Source: Acidobacteria bacterium Ga0074141
GTDB taxonomy: Bacteria > Acidobacteriota > Blastocatellia > Pyrinomonadales > Pyrinomonadaceae
Direction: 5' to 3'
NCBI GenBank assembly: GCA_001464665.1
Contig: LNDP01000023.1
Coordinates: 158,157-222,156 of the forward strand
Length of the DNA stretch: 64,000 bases
Shown here: one piece after another, positions 3,925 through 17,473 of the stretch
Layout of the letters: the number at the start of each line of letters is the position of its first letter
How positions within the stretch are numbered: the first letter of the stretch is position 1
Position numbers and translations under genes: made by a program
The notes under the pieces: model-generated
Database searches by the model: none
Seen by the model: only the letters and a program-made list of their open reading frames with translations
Told to the model about the DNA's origin: nothing

Positions 3925-4338
3925 ATGAAGATCAACCACTTAGGCATTGCGACAAAAGGCATTGATGAAGCTCTCAAGTTTTGGGAGGACGCCCTCGGGC
4001 TTGAGAATGTTCATACCGAGGTCGTCGAGGATCAGAAGGTGCGGGTTGCGATGCTGCCGATCGGCGAGACCCGCGTTGAATTGCTCGAGCCGACCGCCGA
4101 AGATTCGCCGATATCGAAGTTTCTTGAAAAACGCGGCGGCGGCATTCATCACATAGCCGTAGAGGTTGAAGATATCCGGGCGTCGCTCGCTCGGCTTAAG
4201 GCACAAGGCATGCAGCTTATTGACGAAGAGCCGCGTATCGGGGCGGAAGGATGCCTTGTTGCCTTTGTCCACCCAAAGGCCTCGGGCGGTGTTCTATTAG
4301 AACTCGTGCAAACCGATCAGGGGTCAACAACATCCTAG
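3925..4338 (+). CDS. mce: methylmalonyl-CoA epimerase (VOC/glyoxalase fold)
   Basis: MKINHLGIATKGIDEAL..., ETRVELLEP and GGGIHHIAVEV are typical epimerase signatures. Size is 137 aa and it is adjacent to meaB. Confidence 0.85.
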   Translation: MKINHLGIATKGIDEALKFWEDALGLENVHTEVVEDQKVRVAMLPIGETRVELLEPTAEDSPISKFLEKRGGGIHHIAVEVEDIRASLARLKAQGMQLIDEEPRIGAEGCLVAFVHPKASGGVLLELVQTDQGSTTS

Positions 4339-4417
4339 CTGTTTCAGTCCCGTTTTGGTATGATTACGGTTTGCCGTAAGCACATTTGGAATAATCTTTT
4401 TAGTGAGGAATTAGGAA

Positions 4418-5827
4418 TTGAGTAACTTAACAAAAGGTCTGATCTTGCTTCTCGTTGTACTTGGCATTGGTGCCGGGCTGGCCGTCTGGAAAAGCAAGGT
4501 CGGCGGCCACTCGAACGCCGGTTTTAATAAGATCACGCAGCAAGAGGTCGAACTTCTTGTGGCTGATCTGGCCGAGCAGAATCCGATGGCGATCAAACGC
4601 CTCGGCGAGGATGCTGAGCTTCGTAAGCAGCAGTTGAACAATCTCAAAGAATTGTTCGCATTTGCCTCTGAGGCGGAGCGGAGCGGAATGACCAATGACC
4701 CGAAATTCCGCAACGAGCTTCAGAACATCCGAACAGAGCTGACGGCAGTAAACTACGACCGCCACATCAACAAAGACAAGGGCCCGATGCCGCCTTTTGG
4801 ATTCATTGGCGAGGATCAGGTCAAGGCATTCTGGGGTGAAGGCGAACAGCCGGCCAAAGGCTTCTTTGAGAACGCAAAGGACACGATCGGACTCGGCAAA
4901 CGCGACAACGAAATGGCCTTTCAGCGTTTTCTTGATACAAAGATCACACTGCTGAAAGAAAGCAATCCGGCGATGAAAGACCGCGAGATCTCTGAAGAAG
5001 AGAAAACGCAGGCCCGGGAATTCTTTGCAAAGATCAACATATACAACGAAGAATTCGAGACCAAGATCGCCTCGGGCGAACTGCCGAAAGAGCTGAAAGA
5101 TAAGATCGACCTGCAGGTAAAGCTACAGCAAGCCCAATTCCTTGCCCGCGTTTACTCGGACAAGATGGCCAAAGAGATCGAAGTAACCGACGATGATGTC
5201 GCGGCCTACATTGCGGCGAATCCGGAATTTGATACCTCGGCTAAACGAGCCAAGGCTGATGAGATACTCGCTCGTGCTAAAGGCGGCGAAGACTTTGCCG
5301 CTCTTGCGAATGAATTTAGCGAAGATCCGGGCAACAACGCCGGTGAAAACGGCAATAAGCGTGGCGGCCTTTACGACAACGTCAGGCTCGGAATGATGGT
5401 AAAGCCCTTTGAGGAAGCCGCTCTTGCACTTGAACCGGGACAGGTCTCGCAGAATCTCGTGGAAACGGATTTTGGATACCACATCATCAAGCTCGAGAAA
5501 AAAGGCGAAGCCGATGGCCGCGAGGGCCAAAAGGAACAGACCTACGATGTGCGGCACATCCTTATATCGACCGGCTTCAAAGACCCGACCAACCCCATCG
5601 GCCGCGAGGAACCGATCAAGCAGTACGTTCGCCGGAAGCTCGAAGAAGAACGTGAGAAAAAGACGATGGAAGACCTCGTCGCCCGAAACAATGTTCAGGT
5701 GCCCGAGGACTTCAACGTCCCGCAGATCACGGACGAGCAAATACAGGAGATGATGAAACAGCAGCAACAGCAGCAGGTTATCAATACTCCCGGTGGGCAC
5801 TCGGAAGGCGATGGACACGACCATTAA
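4418..5827 (+). CDS. PpiC-type peptidyl-prolyl isomerase (SurA/PrsA-like), membrane anchored
   Basis: TTG start with GAGGAA upstream. It has an N-terminal TM helix, a parvulin core ...FEEAALALEPGQVS..VETDFGYHIIKLE, and a poly-Q/His-rich tail. Confidence 0.8.
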   Translation: MSNLTKGLILLLVVLGIGAGLAVWKSKVGGHSNAGFNKITQQEVELLVADLAEQNPMAIKRLGEDAELRKQQLNNLKELFAFASEAERSGMTNDPKFRNELQNIRTELTAVNYDRHINKDKGPMPPFGFIGEDQVKAFWGEGEQPAKGFFENAKDTIGLGKRDNEMAFQRFLDTKITLLKESNPAMKDREISEEEKTQAREFFAKINIYNEEFETKIASGELPKELKDKIDLQVKLQQAQFLARVYSDKMAKEIEVTDDDVAAYIAANPEFDTSAKRAKADEILARAKGGEDFAALANEFSEDPGNNAGENGNKRGGLYDNVRLGMMVKPFEEAALALEPGQVSQNLVETDFGYHIIKLEKKGEADGREGQKEQTYDVRHILISTGFKDPTNPIGREEPIKQYVRRKLEEEREKKTMEDLVARNNVQVPEDFNVPQITDEQIQEMMKQQQQQQVINTPGGHSEGDGHDH

Positions 5828-6753: not shown

Positions 6754-7970
6754 TTACAAAGCGACAAGCGAGAGTTCGGTGGTTGGTTGTTGGTCTCATG
6801 TTCGTTTCCCTCTGGGCCTTACCCGTACACACGCAGTCCAGGGAAGATACAGCTCGCGGCCAGAAGCATTTTGATACAGGAAACGAGTTGATGGGTAAGG
6901 GTGATCTCCAAAGTGCGATTGCGTCTTATTCCGAAGCAATAGTGTTGCTACCTAAATCGTACCTGCCCTATATGAATCGTGCTATTGCTTACCTTTCATT
7001 GGGCAGGCTCAACGAGGCGGAAGCCGATGCGGTAAAATCGCTAAGTTTGTTTCAGCCGACAATGAAGGACTCCAATCTTCACTTGGCGACGATTTACCAA
7101 GTGAAAGGAACGTTAAAGCAGTATCGAAGAGAGTACACTGCAGCTCTCGAATTTTTCGATAAAGCCATAGAGACGGAACCAACAGCTGCGAAGTTTTACG
7201 ATAGTCAGGCAACAGCCCTGCGCATGCTCGGTCGGGAGAAGGACGCGATCGTCTCTTACAACAAAGCAATTGAGTTGGACAACAGGGAACCCCTTTTCTT
7301 CAACAACCGGGCCGCACTACATGCGCGTTTAGGCGATACCGTATCAGCGTTCGCAGATCTTGACGAAGCATTAAAATTGGATAAGAACGCGAGCAATGCT
7401 TATTACACAAGGGCTTCGATCCGAATGGCCTCGGAGGAATTTGACGAAGCTCTAAACGATCTTAATGAGGCGATCCGCATCGATCCGAGAAAGGCTATCT
7501 TTTTTCATGCTCGCGGAATATTGCACAATCGAAGAAAGCAGTATGATCTAGCAATCAAAGATCATACTCAGGCGATCAGCGTTGATGCGAATCTTGTAGT
7601 CGCTCATGCCGATCGGGCAATCGCCTATTCAGCCATGAAGAACCTTAGCTCCGCTATCGAGGACATGAGGTCGGCTATTCGGATTGACAATGGTTCTGCA
7701 GTTCTACGATACAATTTGGGCTATTTTCTGTATCAGGATCGTCAGTATTCTGAGGCACTCAAAGTTTTGACCGCGGCCATTTCTATTTCTCCAAAATGGG
7801 CTGCACCGTATGTGCTTCGGTCAAACTGCTATGTCGTTCTTAAGCGAAACGACGAAGCTCTTGCCGATAGGAAGATTGCAAAGGAATTGGGTTCTTCTGG
7901 ACGGCCGTCGAGCGATCGATATACGTTTTTCGAGGTCGAAGCACGGCCGCCGGATAACGAAGAAAATTAA
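6750..7970 (+). CDS. secreted TPR repeat protein
   Basis: ATGA overlap with the upstream gene and a signal-like N-terminus (LVVGLMFVSLWALPVHT). It has about 10 TPR units (A..Y..AI.LDP pattern). GC is visibly lower than in the neighbouring genes. Confidence 0.8.
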   Translation: MITKRQARVRWLVVGLMFVSLWALPVHTQSREDTARGQKHFDTGNELMGKGDLQSAIASYSEAIVLLPKSYLPYMNRAIAYLSLGRLNEAEADAVKSLSLFQPTMKDSNLHLATIYQVKGTLKQYRREYTAALEFFDKAIETEPTAAKFYDSQATALRMLGREKDAIVSYNKAIELDNREPLFFNNRAALHARLGDTVSAFADLDEALKLDKNASNAYYTRASIRMASEEFDEALNDLNEAIRIDPRKAIFFHARGILHNRRKQYDLAIKDHTQAISVDANLVVAHADRAIAYSAMKNLSSAIEDMRSAIRIDNGSAVLRYNLGYFLYQDRQYSEALKVLTAAISISPKWAAPYVLRSNCYVVLKRNDEALADRKIAKELGSSGRPSSDRYTFFEVEARPPDNEEN

Positions 7971-10013: not shown

Positions 10014-10493
10014 TTAGATACCGTTGATAAATTTCTGCCCGCCGGCTAGGAAATCCTTAAGGTCATCATCAAGCCCGCTTCCGTGTGCCGAAGGCATCAA
10101 TGTTCCGACGATCCGTTCAAACTTGCTGCCAATCTCTGTCAGTGGCCGTGCGTAGATATTGGCGGGCGATGGGAGTTTACCGATAACGGTCCCAAAAGAC
10201 TGCAACAACTGCCCGTATGCCTTCGCTGCCATTTCCGGGTCTTTCGCGGTCTTCATATTGTTCAGCACCGTAAGGGCGACATAGGCTTTTTCCATGTCCT
10301 CATAGAAGACCGTGCATTCATTCAAGCTTTTGACACCCTTCGACGCAGCCTGGATCTTCTCTTTCACTCGGTTTGGCAACAGGTTGCAGATACCAAACTC
10401 ATAATTCTGGTATTTTTCGACCAATTGAGCCGCCTGATGCAATGTTTCTATCAAACTTGCTTTTGTAACTTTCTTGCTCCACCACCATGCCAT
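10014..10493 (-). CDS. hypothetical protein (orphan, bracketed by hairpin repeats)
   Basis: 159-aa ORF with a protein-like helical composition. The opposite-strand ORF 10083..10718 is Cys/Arg-rich and partly a translation of repeats. No recognisable motif. Confidence 0.5.
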   Translation of the reverse strand: MAWWWSKKVTKASLIETLHQAAQLVEKYQNYEFGICNLLPNRVKEKIQAASKGVKSLNECTVFYEDMEKAYVALTVLNNMKTAKDPEMAAKAYGQLLQSFGTVIGKLPSPANIYARPLTEIGSKFERIVGTLMPSAHGSGLDDDLKDFLAGGQKFINGI

Positions 10494-10643: not shown

Positions 10644-10753
10644 AATTGCACGACCGATTGTTTAAGACAATGTGAACTCCACGCAACTGTCCGCTTAATC
10701 GCATGGGCATTGTCTTAATCCGTTACATATGGCCGGCGAGCCTGTGGGCTAAC

Positions 10754-10790
10754 AAACTGGCCGCCCGCTAACGCAGGCGGTTCTGACTTT
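10754..10790 (-). repeat. REP-like hairpin repeat, type A
   Basis: AAACTGGCCGCCCGCTAACGCAGGCGGTTCTGACTTT. Confidence 0.85.
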
Positions 10791-10799
10791 CGGGCTCGT

Positions 10800-10840
10800 G
10801 TCAGAACCCTCTGCGTAAGCGGAGGGTCAGTTCGTTTACC
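10800..10840 (+). repeat. REP-like hairpin repeat, type B
   Basis: GTCAGAACCCTCTGCGTAAGCGGAGGGTCAGTTCGTTTACC. It matches the 10603 copy at 37 of 41 positions. Confidence 0.85.
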
Positions 10841-10879
10841 AAGTGGCTGCCGGAAAACCCAAGCAGTTCTGCCTCCGGC

Positions 10880-10916
10880 GAACTGGCCGCCTGCTAACGC
10901 AGGCGGTTCTGACTTT
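10880..10916 (-). repeat. REP-like hairpin repeat, type A (perfect stem)
   Basis: GAACTGGCCGCCTGCTAACGCAGGCGGTTCTGACTTT. Here the stem CCGCCTGC/GCAGGCGG is fully Watson-Crick. Confidence 0.85.
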
Positions 10917-10995
10917 CTGGAATCGCAAAAAAGCTCCCTGCGGTGTAAAATCTGTAGCATTAAGTAGCCAGAGGCGAGCGAGTTGAGACTTCAGC

Positions 10996-11022
10996 TGGAT
11001 TCTGACTTCTGGCTTCTGAATT
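10996..11022 (-). repeat. possible degenerate flank remnants of the type A repeat
   Basis: GATTCTGACTTCTGGCTTCTGAATTCT resembles the GTTCTGACTTTCTGG flank seen at 10907..10920. No hairpin core is present. Confidence 0.3.
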
Positions 11023-11032
11023 CTAAAATCAT

Positions 11033-11974: not shown

Positions 11975-12736
11975 ATGGCAAAGCAATTCGATAATTCGAT
12001 CACGACCTTTTCGCGCCCGGCCGGAAACACGACTCTGCTGATCGGCGGCAGCGTTATCGGCGTATTGCTGGCCGCGTCGATCGTTCTGTCGGTCATTTAC
12101 GCGATCTGGCCGCTGGCCATTCTTCTCGGCCTCGGACTCGTCGGGTTCGCGGCCTTCTTTTGGATCGCATTTGACCAATCACGAGTTCTCGCCGCCTGGC
12201 GTTCGGGCACTCGCGTTGATTGGGACTCGACCGGCCCTGAGATCCAGCGGCAGAGCCTCGGCATTGAGGTGACCGAACTCGCCGGAATTCTCGAGGTCGA
12301 ACCTGAGAGCATCAGCGACCTGCAATCGGCTTACATCGTCGCCGAAGATCTCGCACTTCGTCAGATGCAGCAGGAAGAGGGCATTCCGCTGCTCCGCCAC
12401 GTGAGCGTACACGGCGTGCCTTTTGATGCTGCGTTCGTCAGCGATAAGCGGCTCGTTTGCTGCGAGGTCGCGTTTCTCGTAACGCCGGAGCTTCGGCAGG
12501 ATCGTCGCGAGGCCATTATGCGAAAGGCCGGGCTCGTCCGGCGAGCACTCGAAACGCGAAACTCGCCGCTTGATGTCCGCTTGATGCTCGTACTTGTTAC
12601 GCAGCTAACTGCCGAGGACGAGCGGCACCTGCGAAGCACGATCGGAAGCGCCGCCTTTCGCGGAACCCCGGTCAATATTGAGGTAAGATTCGTCGATTTC
12701 GAGGCACTTCAGCGAATTTACGTAACGGAACAATGA
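11975..12736 (+). CDS. membrane-anchored protein of unknown function
   Basis: 253 aa with two N-terminal TM helices and a soluble C-terminal domain of about 170 aa. The stop overlaps the fabI start (ATGA). Confidence 0.6.
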   Translation: MAKQFDNSITTFSRPAGNTTLLIGGSVIGVLLAASIVLSVIYAIWPLAILLGLGLVGFAAFFWIAFDQSRVLAAWRSGTRVDWDSTGPEIQRQSLGIEVTELAGILEVEPESISDLQSAYIVAEDLALRQMQQEEGIPLLRHVSVHGVPFDAAFVSDKRLVCCEVAFLVTPELRQDRREAIMRKAGLVRRALETRNSPLDVRLMLVLVTQLTAEDERHLRSTIGSAAFRGTPVNIEVRFVDFEALQRIYVTEQ

Positions 12737-13500
12737 ACTTATTGGAAAACAAGGTCGGGTTGATTCTCGGCGTCGCAAACAAACGTTCGATCGCCTGGGC
12801 CTGTGCCGATGCCTGCAGCCGCAATGGCGCCCGGCAGGCGTTCTCATATCAGGGCGAGCGGCTTAAGGAAAATGTCGAAAAGCTCGCCGGCGATCTGCCG
12901 GATTCGCTCATCCTGCCGATGGATGTTACGAACCAAGCCGAGGTCGATGCGGCATTCGAGGCGATCGGAAGCAAATTCGGCAAGCTCGATTACATCATTC
13001 ACTCGATCGCATTCGCTCCTCGCGAGGCACTTGAGGGCGATTACGTCGCGACCACGCGGGACGCGTTTCGGACCGCTCTTGAGATCAGCGCCTTCTCGCT
13101 AAACCAGGTGGCATTTGCTGCCGCTCCACTGATGAAGGAAGGCGGCAGTATCGTAACGATGAGCTACTACGGCGCCGAAAAGGTCGTGCGAAATTACAAC
13201 GTAATGGGCGTCGCGAAGGCTGCCCTTGAAGCCTCGGTACGCTACCTCGCCGCCGATCTTGGCAGGCAAGGCATCCGAGTGAATGCCATCTCGGCCGGGC
13301 CACTAAACACGCTTTCCGCCCGCGGAGTTAAGAACATGGGCTCGATGCTTTCGTATGTCGCCGAAAAAGCTCCGTTGCAACGAAACGTAGAGGCAGCCGA
13401 GGTCGGCAACACGGCATTATTTTTGGTGAGCGACCTAGCATCCGGCATAACCGGCGAAACAATTTACGTTGATTGCGGATATAACATTATGGGACTTTAG
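12733..13500 (+). CDS. fabI: enoyl-[acyl-carrier-protein] reductase (NADH) FabI
   Basis: GVANKRSIAW, SYYGAEKVVRNYNVMGVAKAALE (Y-x6-K) and the GETIYVDCGYNIMG C-terminus. Confidence 0.92.
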   Translation: MNLLENKVGLILGVANKRSIAWACADACSRNGARQAFSYQGERLKENVEKLAGDLPDSLILPMDVTNQAEVDAAFEAIGSKFGKLDYIIHSIAFAPREALEGDYVATTRDAFRTALEISAFSLNQVAFAAAPLMKEGGSIVTMSYYGAEKVVRNYNVMGVAKAALEASVRYLAADLGRQGIRVNAISAGPLNTLSARGVKNMGSMLSYVAEKAPLQRNVEAAEVGNTALFLVSDLASGITGETIYVDCGYNIMGL

Positions 13501-13577
13501 GCAGTCGAGGAAGTCGTGGAAGTCTAGGCAGTCTGGGATGTCTGGAATGTCGGGGAGTCTTATTGGCTCAAGAAGTC
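13498..13577. repeat. left array of 9-nt units ending in GTC (complement of GACTTCCTA)
   Basis: The units are TAGGCAGTC GAGGAAGTC GTGGAAGTC TAGGCAGTC TGGGATGTC TGGAATGTC GGGGAGTC ... AAGAAGTC. The array starts at the fabI stop codon. Confidence 0.85.
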
Positions 13578-13614
13578 TTTGGTGCCTCGGTAGTGAACTT
13601 GATTTGTCATTCAC

Positions 13615-13714
13615 GACCTCCAAGACATCCTAGACTGACAAGACTTCCTAGACTAAAAAGGACTTCCTAGACTTCCTCGACATCCAAGACTTCTTAGACT
13701 TCCAAGACTGAATT
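13615..13714. repeat. right array of eleven 9-nt units GACWTCCWA
   Basis: The units are GACCTCCAA GACATCCTA GACTGACAA GACTTCCTA GACTAAAAAG GACTTCCTA GACTTCCTC GACATCCAA GACTTCTTA GACTTCCAA GACTGAATT. The array ends at the ATG of the LOG gene. Confidence 0.85.
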
Positions 13715-14521
13715 ATGGCTGAAACTGACGCTAACAAACCGACGAAGATCAAAGACCTGCACAAGCCGCCTGAGCCGGCAACGGTTGCTGAGGCAAAGAA
13801 GCGCGAGAAGGAGCCCGGCTATTGGCAGTTGACCGACGATGAGGTGCTGCTTCGCTCACCGGACCCGGAGGACAGTTACAAGACGTCAGATTCGTGGCGT
13901 GTCTTTCGCATTCTTGGCGAATTTGTTGATGGATTTGACAATCTTTCGACGATAACACGCGGCGTCTCGATCTTTGGTTCCGCCCGTACCCCAGAGGACG
14001 ACCCGATGTACATCGCTGCCCGCGAGACGGCGAAACTGCTCGCCGAACGGGGCTTTGAGATAATTACCGGCGGCGGGCCCGGCATAATGGAAGCCGGCAA
14101 TCGCGGAGCTTTTGAAGCCGGCGGAGTGTCTGTTGGCTGCAATATCGAACTCCCGTTCGAGCAATCAGGCAATCCGTACCAGACGAAATCGCTTTCCTTC
14201 AAGTACTTCATGGTCCGAAAGACGATGTTCATCAAGTATAGCAATGCCTATATGATCTTCCCGGGCGGTTTCGGCACATTGGATGAATTGTTCGAAGCGC
14301 TGACGCTGATACAGACGCGAAAGATCCGCAACTTCCCGGTCGTGCTTTTCGGGTCGCAGTATTGGCAGGGAATGCTTCAGTGGATCACTTCGATGATGCT
14401 TAATGAGCGGAACATCAGCCCCGAGGATCTAAACCTGATCTACCTCACTGATTCACCCCAGGACGCCGTCGATTTTATCGTCAAAACCTGCGGCGATGTT
14501 GAAAAGAAGCACAAGCTATAA
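13715..14521 (+). CDS. LOG family (TIGR00730) nucleotide phosphoribohydrolase
   Basis: GGGPGIMEA and PGGFGTLDELFE signature motifs. No Shine-Dalgarno is visible, and the repeat array abuts the ATG. Confidence 0.88.
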   Translation: MAETDANKPTKIKDLHKPPEPATVAEAKKREKEPGYWQLTDDEVLLRSPDPEDSYKTSDSWRVFRILGEFVDGFDNLSTITRGVSIFGSARTPEDDPMYIAARETAKLLAERGFEIITGGGPGIMEAGNRGAFEAGGVSVGCNIELPFEQSGNPYQTKSLSFKYFMVRKTMFIKYSNAYMIFPGGFGTLDELFEALTLIQTRKIRNFPVVLFGSQYWQGMLQWITSMMLNERNISPEDLNLIYLTDSPQDAVDFIVKTCGDVEKKHKL

Positions 14522-14875
14522 GCCGACCGAATCCTTCACCCAGCTAAGATATCCAGCCGATACGTAGCTCGCCGGAACAGCGACGATCTCCGGCTCGTCG
14601 TAGCTGTGGTTTGCTTTCAAATACGCCTCTACAGCAGTGAACTTCTCCGCCATTGTCTTTATCACCAGAAGATGTTCCCCATCCACGTGCAACTCGCCTT
14701 TCCAGCGATAGACCGACGTCATTCGCGGCAGAAGCTGAACGCAGGCGGCAATATTGCCCTCAACAAGGCCTTTGGCAAGACGCATCCCCTCGTCCTCATC
14801 TGAAACCGTTGTCATCACAACTATCATGAGGCTGATTATATCTGATTCCATTCCGGGCCGTGTTCTGCCTTTCAA
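14516..14875 (-). CDS. cutA: divalent-cation tolerance protein CutA
   Basis: AACVQLLPRMTSVYRWKGE...HSYDEPEI is a CutA1 signature. Size is 119 aa. It is convergent with the LOG gene and overlaps it by 6 nt. Confidence 0.85.
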   Translation of the reverse strand: MKGRTRPGMESDIISLMIVVMTTVSDEDEGMRLAKGLVEGNIAACVQLLPRMTSVYRWKGELHVDGEHLLVIKTMAEKFTAVEAYLKANHSYDEPEIVAVPASYVSAGYLSWVKDSVGL

Positions 14876-14881
14876 GCCACG

Positions 14882-14912
14882 AAAAAAGGCCGCCCGGAGT
14901 TCCCGAGCGGCC
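14882..14912 (-). terminator. rho-independent terminator of gyrA
   Basis: On the minus strand there is a GGGCCGCTCGGG...CCGGGCGGCC stem followed by TTTTTT (the A-run 14882..14887 on plus). Confidence 0.7.
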
Positions 14913-14935
14913 CGTCTTTTATTAACGACGAAGAA

Positions 14936-17473
14936 CTATTCTTCGTCCTCTTCCGCAGCCAGGAGTGTCGCGGATGTGACGCAGTCGCCGTCGTCGCAGC
15001 GGATAAGCATCACGCCCTGAGCCGAGCGGCCCGTTTCGCGGATCTTATCCACCCCAAGCCTGATCAGCTTTGCCTGCTGCGTGATTATCATTATCTCGGA
15101 GTCATCCTCGACCGGAAACGCCGAGATGACCTTGCCGGTCTTTTCGGTCGTTTTCATATTGATGACGCCGATGCCGCCACGCTTCGTCAGCCGATAGTTT
15201 GCGACCTGCGTTTGCTTTCCGAATCCGTTCTCCGAAACCGAAAGGATCTTTTGATCACCTTCGGGAGAAACGGCGCAAACCGAAACAACATAGTCGCCGT
15301 CGCGAAGGTTAACACCGCGTACGCCGCGGGCCACGCGACCCATCGGCCGGACGTCCGTTTCATTAAAACGAACCGCCATTCCGTTGTGCGTCGCGATGAA
15401 GATCTGCTGTTTTCCATCCGTCCGGATGACATTGAGCAGTTCATCGCCTTCGTCGATATTGATGGCGTTAATGCCCGTGACCCGAATGTTCTGATAATCC
15501 GAAAGCAATGTCTTTTTGATCACACCGTTTCGCGTCACCATCGTCAGGTAAACTTCCTCGGTAAAATCGCGAACCGGCATCACCGCGACAAGCTTTCGCT
15601 CCATCGAGATCTGAACAAGGTTGACGACCGCCTTTCCGCGAGCCGCCGCTGCCGCCTCGGGGATCTCGTGGACCTTGATCTTATAGACCTGGCCGTCCTC
15701 GGTGAAGATCATCAGGTAGTCGTGGGTCGAGGCCGTAAAAATGTGCTCAACGAAATCTTCGTTCTTCGCCGTCGCACCGAGCCTTCCCTTTCCTCCGCGG
15801 CCCTGCCGTGTGTAGGTCGAGACCGCCGTCCGCTTGATGTAGCCGGCCTTTGTCACCGTTATGGCAACCTCTTCGTCGGGTATCAGATCCTCGATCTTGA
15901 ACTCAACGCCAGCATCAACGATCTGCGTCCGCCTAGCGTCACCGAACAGCCTCCTGACCTCGAGCAGTTCATCGATGATCACCTGCTTGAGCACGCTGTC
16001 GTTCTCAAGGATATTCTCGAGTTCAGCGATCAGTTTGATTATCGACTCGTATTCGTCAAGGATCTTCTGCCGTTCAAGGGCTGAAAGCCTGCGAAGCTGC
16101 AGGTCAAGGATCGCCTGTGCCTGAATATCGGTAAACGCAAGACCGTTGATGATCTTCCGGAGTTCTTTCTTGAACTCCTCTTCACCTTTGCCGCCCGCGA
16201 TACCTCGCCATTTCTTGACCTCTTCAAGCGTCTCAAAATTGGCGGTCATCCACTTCTTGGCCTCATCGACCGACCGCGAATTGCGGATCAGCGGAATGAT
16301 GTAGTCAAGAGCGTCGATCGCCTTATTGAGGCCTTCCAAAATATGCGCCCGGGCCTGTGCCTTGCGAAGTTCGAACTGCGTGCGTCGCGTTACCACCTCG
16401 CGGCGGAAGGCGACGAAGCACTCGAGCATCTCCTTGAGAGTAAGTACCTTCGGCTGCCCGTCGACGATCGCAATACTAATGATGCCGAACGAGGACTGGA
16501 GCGGTGTCAGCTTATAAAGCTTGTTTAGGATCACCTGCGGGATCGCATCGCGTTTCAGCTCGATAACGATCCGCATTCCTTCGCGGTTCGATTCGTCCCG
16601 GACCTCAGAGGCTCCCTCGAGCCTTTTCTCGTTCATCAGCTCGGCGATCTTTTCAATAAGCCTCGCTTTGTTGACCTGATACGGTATCTCCGTGATAACG
16701 ATCGCGTCGCGTTCACCGCGGCCGATCTGATCGATCGCCGCCTTGGCACGCATCTGAATAACGCCGCGGCCCTCGCGATAAGCCTTGTGGATCTCCTCGC
16801 GGCCGTAGATAAACCCGGCGGTCGGAAAGTCGGGGCCGGGAACGATCTTGATAAGCTCGTCAACCGTCACTGTCGGATTTTTGATGACCGTGATCGTAGC
16901 ATCGAGAATCTCGGTGAGGTTGTGCGGCGGGATCTTCGTGGCCATACCGACCGCAATTCCCTCCGATCCATTCACCAGCAAAAGCGGTATCTTTGTCGGC
17001 AGAACTGACGGCTCGGAGAGCGTATCGTCGTAATTCGGGTGAAAATCGACCGTTTCCTTTTCGATATCGGCAAGCACATCGTCGCTCAGCTTTTGGAGCC
17101 GGACCTCGGTGTAACGCATTGCCGCCGGGTTGTCGCCGTCGATCGAGCCAAAATTGCCCTGGCCATCGACGAGCGGATAACGCATCGAGAAGTCCTGGGC
17201 CATTCGGACGATCGAGTCGTAGATCGCCGAGTCGCCGTGCGGGTGATATTTACCCATCACGTCACCAACGGCACGTGCGGATTTCCTGTATTGCTTGCTG
17301 GACGTGTTGCCGGCCTCGTACATTCCGTAAAGAATGCGGCGGTGAACCGGTTTAAGGCCATCGCGGACGTCCGGGAGAGCACGTCCGATGATGACGGACA
17401 TTGCATAATCGAGATACGACCGGCGCATCTCATCGTCAATATTTATTTGTTCGCGTTCGAGTAATGAGTCCAT
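14936..17473 (-). CDS. gyrA: DNA gyrase subunit A
   Basis: [16 protein letters not shown], the QRDR segment [13 protein letters not shown], a C-terminal beta-pinwheel with repeated GIGVI/GVRGV motifs, and an acidic tail. Confidence 0.97.

Follow-up and report, generated by a model that had tools for sequence, protein, structure and literature searches.

Between the enoyl-ACP reductase gene fabI and a LOG-family gene, the 64,000-nucleotide (nt) stretch of Acidobacteria bacterium Ga0074141 DNA analysed here (contig LNDP01000023.1, positions 158,157 to 222,156; hereafter the window) carries a spacer made largely of short tandem repeats in two inverted arrays. The tract is real and not an artefact. 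With moderate confidence, we consider this spacer to be a copy, lacking an open reading frame (ORF), of a family of hairpin cassettes that resemble the intervening sequences (IVS) of ribosomal RNA (rRNA) and are typical of, or widespread in, the Pyrinomonadaceae (Acidobacteriota). A full cassette consists of a 5′ array of NNGGAAGTC units, a gene of the protein family PF05635 with 118–126 codons, and an inverted GACTTCCNN array that ends 4–9 nt before the next start codon. The spacer is read as an ORF-less copy because its arms, their order, their codon-to-codon placement and the genomic site all match the first PF05635 subfamily (subfamily A), with the gene missing. The narrower claim that the arrays of the window belong with the arrays flanking PF05635 genes can be made with considerable assurance.

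Structure of the repeat tract

The spacer and the two genes on either side of it comprise the following features.

12733..13500, + strand: fabI (enoyl-ACP reductase), an ORF matching Pfam PF13561 (E 3.7e-89); upstream operon gene
13498..13559, + strand: left (5′) arm of seven tandem NNGGNNGTC units, consensus TAGGAAGTC, 9 nt each, the last of 8 nt
13560..13614, + strand: 55-nt centre or loop, free of repeats apart from a single degenerate unit
13569-13577: the degenerate unit CAAGAAGTC inside the centre
13615..13660, + strand: right (3′) arm, inner block of five GACNNCCNN units, one of them 10 nt long; mirrors the left arm
13661..13714, + strand: right (3′) arm, outer block of six units; second mirror copy of the left arm (D1 spacing 46)
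13715..14521, + strand: LOG-family gene (TIGR00730 / Lysine_decarbox) matching Pfam PF03641 (E 4.7e-33); downstream operon gene

An earlier note on this DNA had described the spacer as inverted 9-nt arrays extending from the fabI TAG to the ATG of the LOG gene, and this description was upheld, with 7 units, a 55-nt centre and 11 units found. The fabI stop codon TAG (13498-13500) doubles as the opening three bases of unit one, and the left arm (13498-13559) reads, in order, TAGGCAGTC GAGGAAGTC GTGGAAGTC TAGGCAGTC TGGGATGTC TGGAATGTC GGGGAGTC. The 11 GACNNCCNN units of the right arm (13615-13714), which runs up to the LOG ATG at 13715, are GACCTCCAA GACATCCTA GACTGACAA GACTTCCTA GACTAAAAAG GACTTCCTA GACTTCCTC GACATCCAA GACTTCTTA GACTTCCAA GACTGAATT. 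What had been taken for a single right arm is in fact two blocks, 13615-13660 and 13661-13714, each mirroring the left arm. Between the left arm and the inner block, variant units are mirrored in order as well (GATGTC/GACATC, GCAGTC/GACTGA).

Tandem Repeats Finder returned a period of 9 in both arms (13498-13547, 5.7 copies; 13615-13709, 10.4 copies), and the units share a constant GTC/GAC core at regular 9-nt spacing. A scan of periods 4–15 found this to be the sole 9-nt-periodic tract in the 64 kb, where it is present as a single copy. Two spurious ORFs cross it, one of 62 aa on the minus strand, previously thought to be the only one, and one of 54 aa with a TTG start on the plus strand. There is no PF05635 ORF between the arms and no significant remnant of one in 13560-13614, nor is there a PF05635 gene elsewhere in the 64-kb window. 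The junction between the hypothetical gene upstream and fabI is a 4-nt overlap (12733-12736), without a cassette.

The long imperfect hairpin that had been proposed for the spacer was borne out by the folding analysis. The inverted repeat has 47-nt arms with 79% complementarity between the left arm and the inner block, together with alternative registers. The region 13490-13730 folds as RNA at −93.8 kcal/mol on the plus strand (z −5.2) and at −86.7 kcal/mol on the minus strand (z −6.0), well below shuffled controls, none of which (0 of 200) folded as well; for the tract overall, z is about −5 to −7. When the left arm was paired to a single block, the fold reached −66.4 kcal/mol for the inner and −71.3 kcal/mol for the outer one. 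A search against Rfam (E ≤ 1, 12500-15000) gave no match in the spacer and no rRNA match; the lone match, a weak one to the small RNA RcsR1, lies downstream of LOG (22.7 bits against a gathering score of 60, E 0.11).

Arrays of the same type enclose PF05635 genes

A scan of species-representative genomes with the array pattern produced matches that include several Pyrinomonadaceae (relative loci are numbered L### here and below). In L023 and L036 the matches lay in the fabI–LOG spacer and enclosed no gene. In L057, arms of 9 and 14 units some 500 nt apart enclose a 126-codon ORF assigned to PF05635, "23S rRNA intervening-sequence protein" (E 9e-34). The fabI–LOG spacer of L156 is 506 nt long and holds a homologous 121-codon gene between arms of the same type. 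Such genes were found at three chromosomal sites.

fabI, PF05635 gene, LOG gene: L156, L211, L214/L215, L225/L226
DUF1844 gene, PF05635 gene, MBL-fold gene: L057, L212/L213
Peptidase M14 gene, PF05635 gene, gene for a 161-aa protein: L216-218, L219-221, L222-224

All nine distinct subfamily-A copies examined at these three sites, four of them in fabI–LOG, are flanked by GGAAGT(C/T) upstream and (G/A)ACTTCC downstream. In each of the nine, the upstream array consists of NNGGAAGT(C/T) units from the host stop codon, while the downstream array of (G/A)ACTTCCNN units starts at or shortly after the stop of the PF05635 gene, often by way of its TAG, and extends almost to the following ATG; in every case the PF05635 gene is co-oriented with its neighbours. 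The window spacer shows the same arm order, NNGGAAGTC on the 5′ side and GACTTCCNN on the 3′ side, and likewise fills a co-oriented junction from stop to start, with no gene between the arms.

The proteins cluster loosely by site, with identities of 72–85% within fabI–LOG and 65–77% between fabI–LOG and the other two sites. A second PF05635 subfamily, 34–38% identical to the first, occupies the junction between the hypothetical gene and fabI (L159, 704-1060; L312, 501-857; L312-314). Here the flanking arrays have 7-nt units, GGTAGTC on the upstream side and GACTAC(C/T) on the downstream side. Unit type thus tracks gene subfamily, since GGAAGTC flanks the first and the 7-nt GGTAGTC unit the second.

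Searches for PF05635 homologues returned 795 and 7,673 matches, and among the matches listed (120 per search) most were on contigs shorter than 2 kb. One further contig, L087, ends inside an array (7598-7697). Taken together, the short contigs and the end of L087 indicate that the arrays interrupt short-read assembly in this family. Among 85 pattern matches in viral contigs, neither the inverted layout nor a PF05635 gene was seen.

Turnover of the spacer among relatives

Scanning metagenomes with the LOG protein identified 80 loci, from which the spacers between the fabI stop and the LOG start were extracted. Relatives of this protein were annotated as Pyrinomonadaceae, Acidobacteria or Chloracidobacterium, which marks the source of the window as a Blastocatellia/Pyrinomonadaceae-like acidobacterium. 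Both the gene order pfkB–hypothetical gene–fabI–LOG–cutA and the LOG start codon are kept in relatives. The search for arrays in relatives had a mixed outcome: the first three relatives compared had no 9-nt array but each its own, different inverted repeat in the spacer, while some other spacers carry the array type of the window. The spacers fall into the following types.

9-nt GGAAGTC/GACTTCC arrays: window, L132-134, L145, L023, L036, L159, L169
9-nt GAGTC.../GACTCGATA arrays: L164, L161
8-nt CAGAGTT/AACTCTG arrays: L150, L163, L139
8-nt CGGATTT/AAATCC arrays: L151, L137, L148
7-nt GATTTTG/CAAAATC arrays: L157, L190, L198
7-nt GCGGAAT/ATTCCGC arrays: L142, L146, L168, L173, L178, L194
Long non-tandem palindromes: L141, L144, L152, L160, L162; L011, L138, L172
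Little or no spacer, mostly a TAATG or TGATG overlap: L165, L166, L176, L177, L189, L200

Every tandem-array fabI–LOG spacer in this list has the G-rich arm on the 5′ side and the C-rich arm on the 3′ side, and its array stops 4–9 nt before the ATG; the final 4–9 nt outside the array are A/T-rich. The same array type occurs in the same spacer with a unit number that varies by species (214, 208, 161, 160, 115, 98, 96, 93 and 82 nt). Compared with its nearest relatives that bear such arrays, the window is 80–85% identical in the coding DNA on either side but only about 55% in the spacer, with large gaps. Two of these gaps, of 26 and 28 nt in the comparison with L132, fall one in each arm and are roughly matched, and the terminal right-arm unit GACTGAATT is common to the window, L132 and L134. 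Among the 40 distinct orthologous spacers of at least 40 nt, 32 had a z below −3 (median z −6.3). This strong fold is thus retained across differing units and periods, even as unit number and unit sequence turn over quickly.

Seven metagenome contigs from six sequencing runs encode an identical LOG protein and carry an array 100% identical to that of the window. They also match the window over their full 4–21 kb, six at 100% and one at 99.98%; because the identity extends over their whole length, the seven represent one clone and are uninformative about strain variability. Unit-number differences were seen only between species and not among these one-clone contigs, which makes for a weak test of a contingency locus. 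The suggestion of a hypervariable minisatellite therefore stands in part: the array is minisatellite-like in that unit number varies between related species, and no hypervariability over short times was seen in the seven identical contigs, themselves a single clone.

Strength of the cassette interpretation

Several observations weigh against the interpretation of the window spacer as an ORF-less cassette. The gene was present at only one of the eight Pyrinomonadaceae-type loci found via the array pattern. A tblastn search for a remnant of the gene in gene-less spacers reached 20.4 bits at best (18.9 in the window), with shuffled sequences scoring up to 23.9, and a blastn search of the gene-less loops yielded only a 9/9 match (E 0.78). 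Since the window holds no detectable remnant, its descent from a full cassette is not proven, and it is possible that the gene instead entered hairpins that already existed. In a rough tree of LOG, spacers with a full cassette are intermingled with gene-less ones and with the other types, and array type is patchy, so that the order of gains and losses cannot be set.

The folds add a further point on the same side. An RNA selected in the sense orientation would gain from G-U pairs and fold better than its antisense, yet among 45 orthologous spacers the sense strand was the more stable in 20 and the antisense in 25, and the two differed by 0.06 kcal/mol on average. This lack of strand bias provides no evidence for selection specific to the sense RNA, and a palindrome-forming process at the DNA level accounts for the symmetry equally well as one at the RNA level.

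A mechanism may be proposed for the ORF-less cassette. It would be co-transcribed with fabI and LOG, and its arms would form an imperfect duplex with roughly 70 predicted bp. By analogy with rRNA IVS, RNase III could cut this duplex, separating the two cistrons and discarding the loop; in full copies the same cut would release the mRNA of the small gene. RNase III processing of the stem, taken alone, merits clearly less confidence than the cassette interpretation itself. The arrays would change by slippage of units, mirrored in the other arm. The element is presumably largely selfish or neutral, and may be tolerated because it is placed exactly between stop and start codons. The purine-rich 5′ units (GGAAG, AAGGAG) sit where the small gene needs a ribosome-binding site, and we propose that the arm order is fixed because these units could supply one.

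Comparison with known elements

The closest parallel is the IVS of 23S rRNA. In Coxiella, its 28-bp stem is formed by terminal inverted repeats, the loop contains an S23p (PF05635) ORF, a strain-variable number of tandem heptamers (GACAGAT) lies just before that ORF, and RNase III excision takes place within the stem (PMC4990558). The cassettes share with the rRNA IVS of Coxiella burnetii and Leptospira an inverted-repeat stem, a PF05635 four-helix-bundle ORF in the loop and variable-number short tandem repeats adjoining the ORF; in both, ORF-less or decaying versions exist, and rRNA IVS are regarded as selfish elements (PMC4990558). The window element likewise has a stable stem made of terminal inverted repeats. 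It differs in lying in an mRNA spacer between two protein genes rather than in helix 9, 25 or 45 of 23S rRNA, in having much longer stems whose arms are composed wholly of tandem 9-nt units, and, in the window copy, in lacking the ORF.

In the short tandemly repeated repetitive (STRR) sequences of cyanobacteria, 7-bp units repeated in tandem fold into hairpins within operon spacers, that of hupS-hupL among them; suggested roles are in transcript stability or in translational coupling (PMC2670836). Like the window tract, they consist of short tandem units in operon spacers, form hairpins and, at least in STRR, differ in unit sequence from locus to locus; one cyanobacterial locus, L076, has the same inverted layout as the window. 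Their units are of 7 bp and their hosts filamentous cyanobacteria, whereas the window unit is of 9 nt (7–9 in relatives) and its host an acidobacterium. We found no report in the literature linking STRR to PF05635 genes.

Repetitive extragenic palindromes (REPs) are single imperfect palindromes of 20–40 bp, conserved, present in high copy and associated with REP-associated tyrosine transposases (RAYTs), while miniature inverted-repeat transposable elements (MITEs) have defined terminal repeats and target duplications. The hairpins of Correia elements, which are MITEs of Neisseria, are RNase III substrates. REPs, bacterial interspersed mosaic elements (BIMEs), REPINs and MITEs are intergenic palindromic DNA that is co-transcribed with its neighbours and may act as RNA hairpins; the window tract resembles REP/REPIN elements and MITEs only in being an intergenic palindrome. 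It departs from them in its arms of variable-number tandem arrays and its single copy in 64 kb, and the cassettes in that their associated gene encodes a four-helix-bundle protein and not a transposase (RAYT was not searched for). Our literature search turned up no account of arrays of this kind in Acidobacteria and none of PF05635 cassettes other than in rRNA.

Alternative explanations

The alternative that survives best is a self-generated palindromic minisatellite, an acidobacterial counterpart of STRR, in which a small intercistronic hairpin has grown by replication slippage and template-switch correction and the gene merely lodges in the loops. It is consistent with orthologous spacers whose inverted arrays use a variety of unrelated units at periods of 7, 8 and 9 nt, with similar arrays in other spacers, with the lack of strand bias in the folds and with loops that hold no gene remnant; the STRR hairpins of spacers such as hupS-hupL (PMC2670836) and the layout of L076 provide a precedent. 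It fares poorly with the GGAAGTC-type unit on both sides of all nine distinct subfamily-A genes at three unrelated sites, and with the different unit carried by a different gene subfamily, a co-variation of unit and gene that arrays originating in place, independently of one another, would not readily produce. On balance we regard this explanation as unlikely, albeit one with a genuine chance of being correct.

A bolder proposal would extend the cassette interpretation, and we put it forward as a speculation with rather low odds. Array-flanked PF05635 cassettes might form a distinct class of small mobile or self-maintaining elements, in which the pentameric four-helix-bundle protein recognises its own 7–9-nt arrays, as DNA or RNA, and so promotes their spread, retention or processing. 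The rRNA IVS and STRR-type hairpins would then be special cases or relics, and the window spacer a non-autonomous copy served in trans.

The arrays might instead be cooperative protein-binding sites on DNA or RNA, each 9-nt unit being a putative site for the pentameric four-helix-bundle protein of full copies elsewhere in the genome, for example, or for another regulator of LOG. Avd, a relative of PF05635, binds nucleic acid. The regular 9-nt spacing and constant GTC/GAC core would suit such a role, as would the co-variation of unit type with gene subfamily, and PF05635 is described as Avd-like in a paper on diversity-generating retroelements (PMC10053308). The units of the same spacer are wholly different between lineages, however, close relatives with the same LOG gene lack the array, and the 64-kb window contains no PF05635 gene. 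We judge a binding array to be improbable.

A translational occluder or coupler of LOG, in which the initiation region would stay paired to the 3′ arm until the foot of the stem is opened by ribosomes completing fabI, appears similarly doubtful to us. The stem does span the distance from fabI stop to LOG start, the same codon-to-codon fit is seen in relatives, and the TAATG or TGATG overlaps of some relatives imply direct coupling; for STRR hairpins, too, translational coupling has been suggested (PMC2670836). A cassette inserted into a formerly overlapping junction would, however, be just as likely to show this codon-to-codon fit, and the final 4–9 nt before the ATG are A/T-rich and outside the array. 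The earlier note had described the arms as Shine-Dalgarno-like and anti-Shine-Dalgarno-like, had pointed to the missing Shine-Dalgarno motif before LOG and had named a translational occluder among its candidate roles. This reading proved weak, as such motifs are rare anyway, with GGAG-like sequences at only about 5 of 19 window genes, which makes their absence before LOG ordinary, and as sense and antisense folds are equally stable (20 versus 25).

An intrinsic terminator or 3′ stabilising hairpin of the fabI transcript is very improbable. A strong hairpin does lie directly 3′ of fabI, and in a few relatives (L036, L169, L161, L164, L150) the stem is followed by TTTT(T), but in the window it is followed by GAATTATG, with no U run, and far exceeds the length of a terminator stem. 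Promoter and terminator scans found no site in the spacer, and no LOG promoter was detected downstream of or within the stem. An origin of replication or DnaA-box array, considered in view of the nearby gyrA, was dropped without a formal test, the unit being unlike the DnaA-box consensus by eye and the array being absent in close relatives.

Other repeats and arrays

Arrays related to those of the cassettes were also seen in other settings. In L057, a gene-less inverted array with the 9-nt unit GAGTCTATC / GACTCGATA (2592-2770) fills a divergent spacer next to mazG, 600 nt from the full GGAAGTC cassette, and the same unit type fills the L164 fabI–LOG spacer. Arrays of the GGAAGTC/GACTTCC type, or similar ones, occur in non-coding DNA of Bryobacterales, Hydrogenedentota, Planctomycetota and Microcoleaceae (L041, L029, L016, L069, L076); those of L041 are inverted pairs, those of L076 are nested inside other inverted arrays, and no PF05635 gene was found near any of the five within 8-kb pieces. 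Many array-pattern matches outside Acidobacteria are coding repeats, such as the DILDFLDFL motifs of Planctomycetota, and were set aside as not the same thing.

Arrays of the 9-nt type also occur within coding sequence in relatives. A HisRS-like (histidyl-tRNA synthetase-like) ORF in L024 (119-1447) contains both array arms in frame (..EESLGSLGSLDSGTSETSQTSSTSKTELADL..), and a 499-aa ORF in L073 (3596-5095, minus strand) contains one (..ETSQTSQTSQTSQTSQTSETS..). It had been argued that a 9-nt period is not a plausible coding repeat, but 9 nt equals three codons and can therefore be coding, and these in-frame examples indicate that the period allows arrays to persist in coding sequence.

Within the window, a CT-rich tract with a 7-nt period (CTGGATT CTGACTT CTGGCTT CTGAATT) at 10985-11030 ends 9 nt before the pfkB ATG; it has two GACTTC motifs and may be a decayed single array arm. 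A REP/BIME-like cluster at 10739-10913 lies between the ORF 10014-10493 (minus strand) and pfkB. It comprises three copies, in alternating orientation, of a 35–49-nt palindromic unit with the core CCGCC[CT]GCTAACGCAGGCGGTTCTGAC, and a related unit is present in L178/L179 at 1045-1154. A separate dispersed family is formed by the REP-like palindrome GCCCGCACGTAAGTAAGGGCTC and its variants, which recur downstream of genes in the Pyrinomonadaceae contigs L145, L149, L153 and L178. In L159, three successive pairs of the perfect or near-perfect 25-nt inverted repeat TCCCCTCCTGGACAGGAGGGGTGGC were noted at 3926-4499, with arms about 130–135 nt apart.

Significance

The element described here brings together two old puzzles that have been difficult to approach, the origin and role of the rRNA IVS with their S23p/PF05635 proteins and the nature of the tandem-repeat hairpins of bacterial operon spacers, in the form of a PF05635 gene framed by inverted arrays at conserved operon junctions, with many gene-less derivatives. 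If our interpretation is correct, it would offer a testable model of array recognition by the protein, of RNase III processing and of how expression of the genes on either side is affected. The frequent breaks at PF05635 genes in metagenome assemblies from this abundant soil family would be accounted for as well, and annotators would have grounds to regard such spacers as elements, not as regulatory regions belonging to the adjacent gene.

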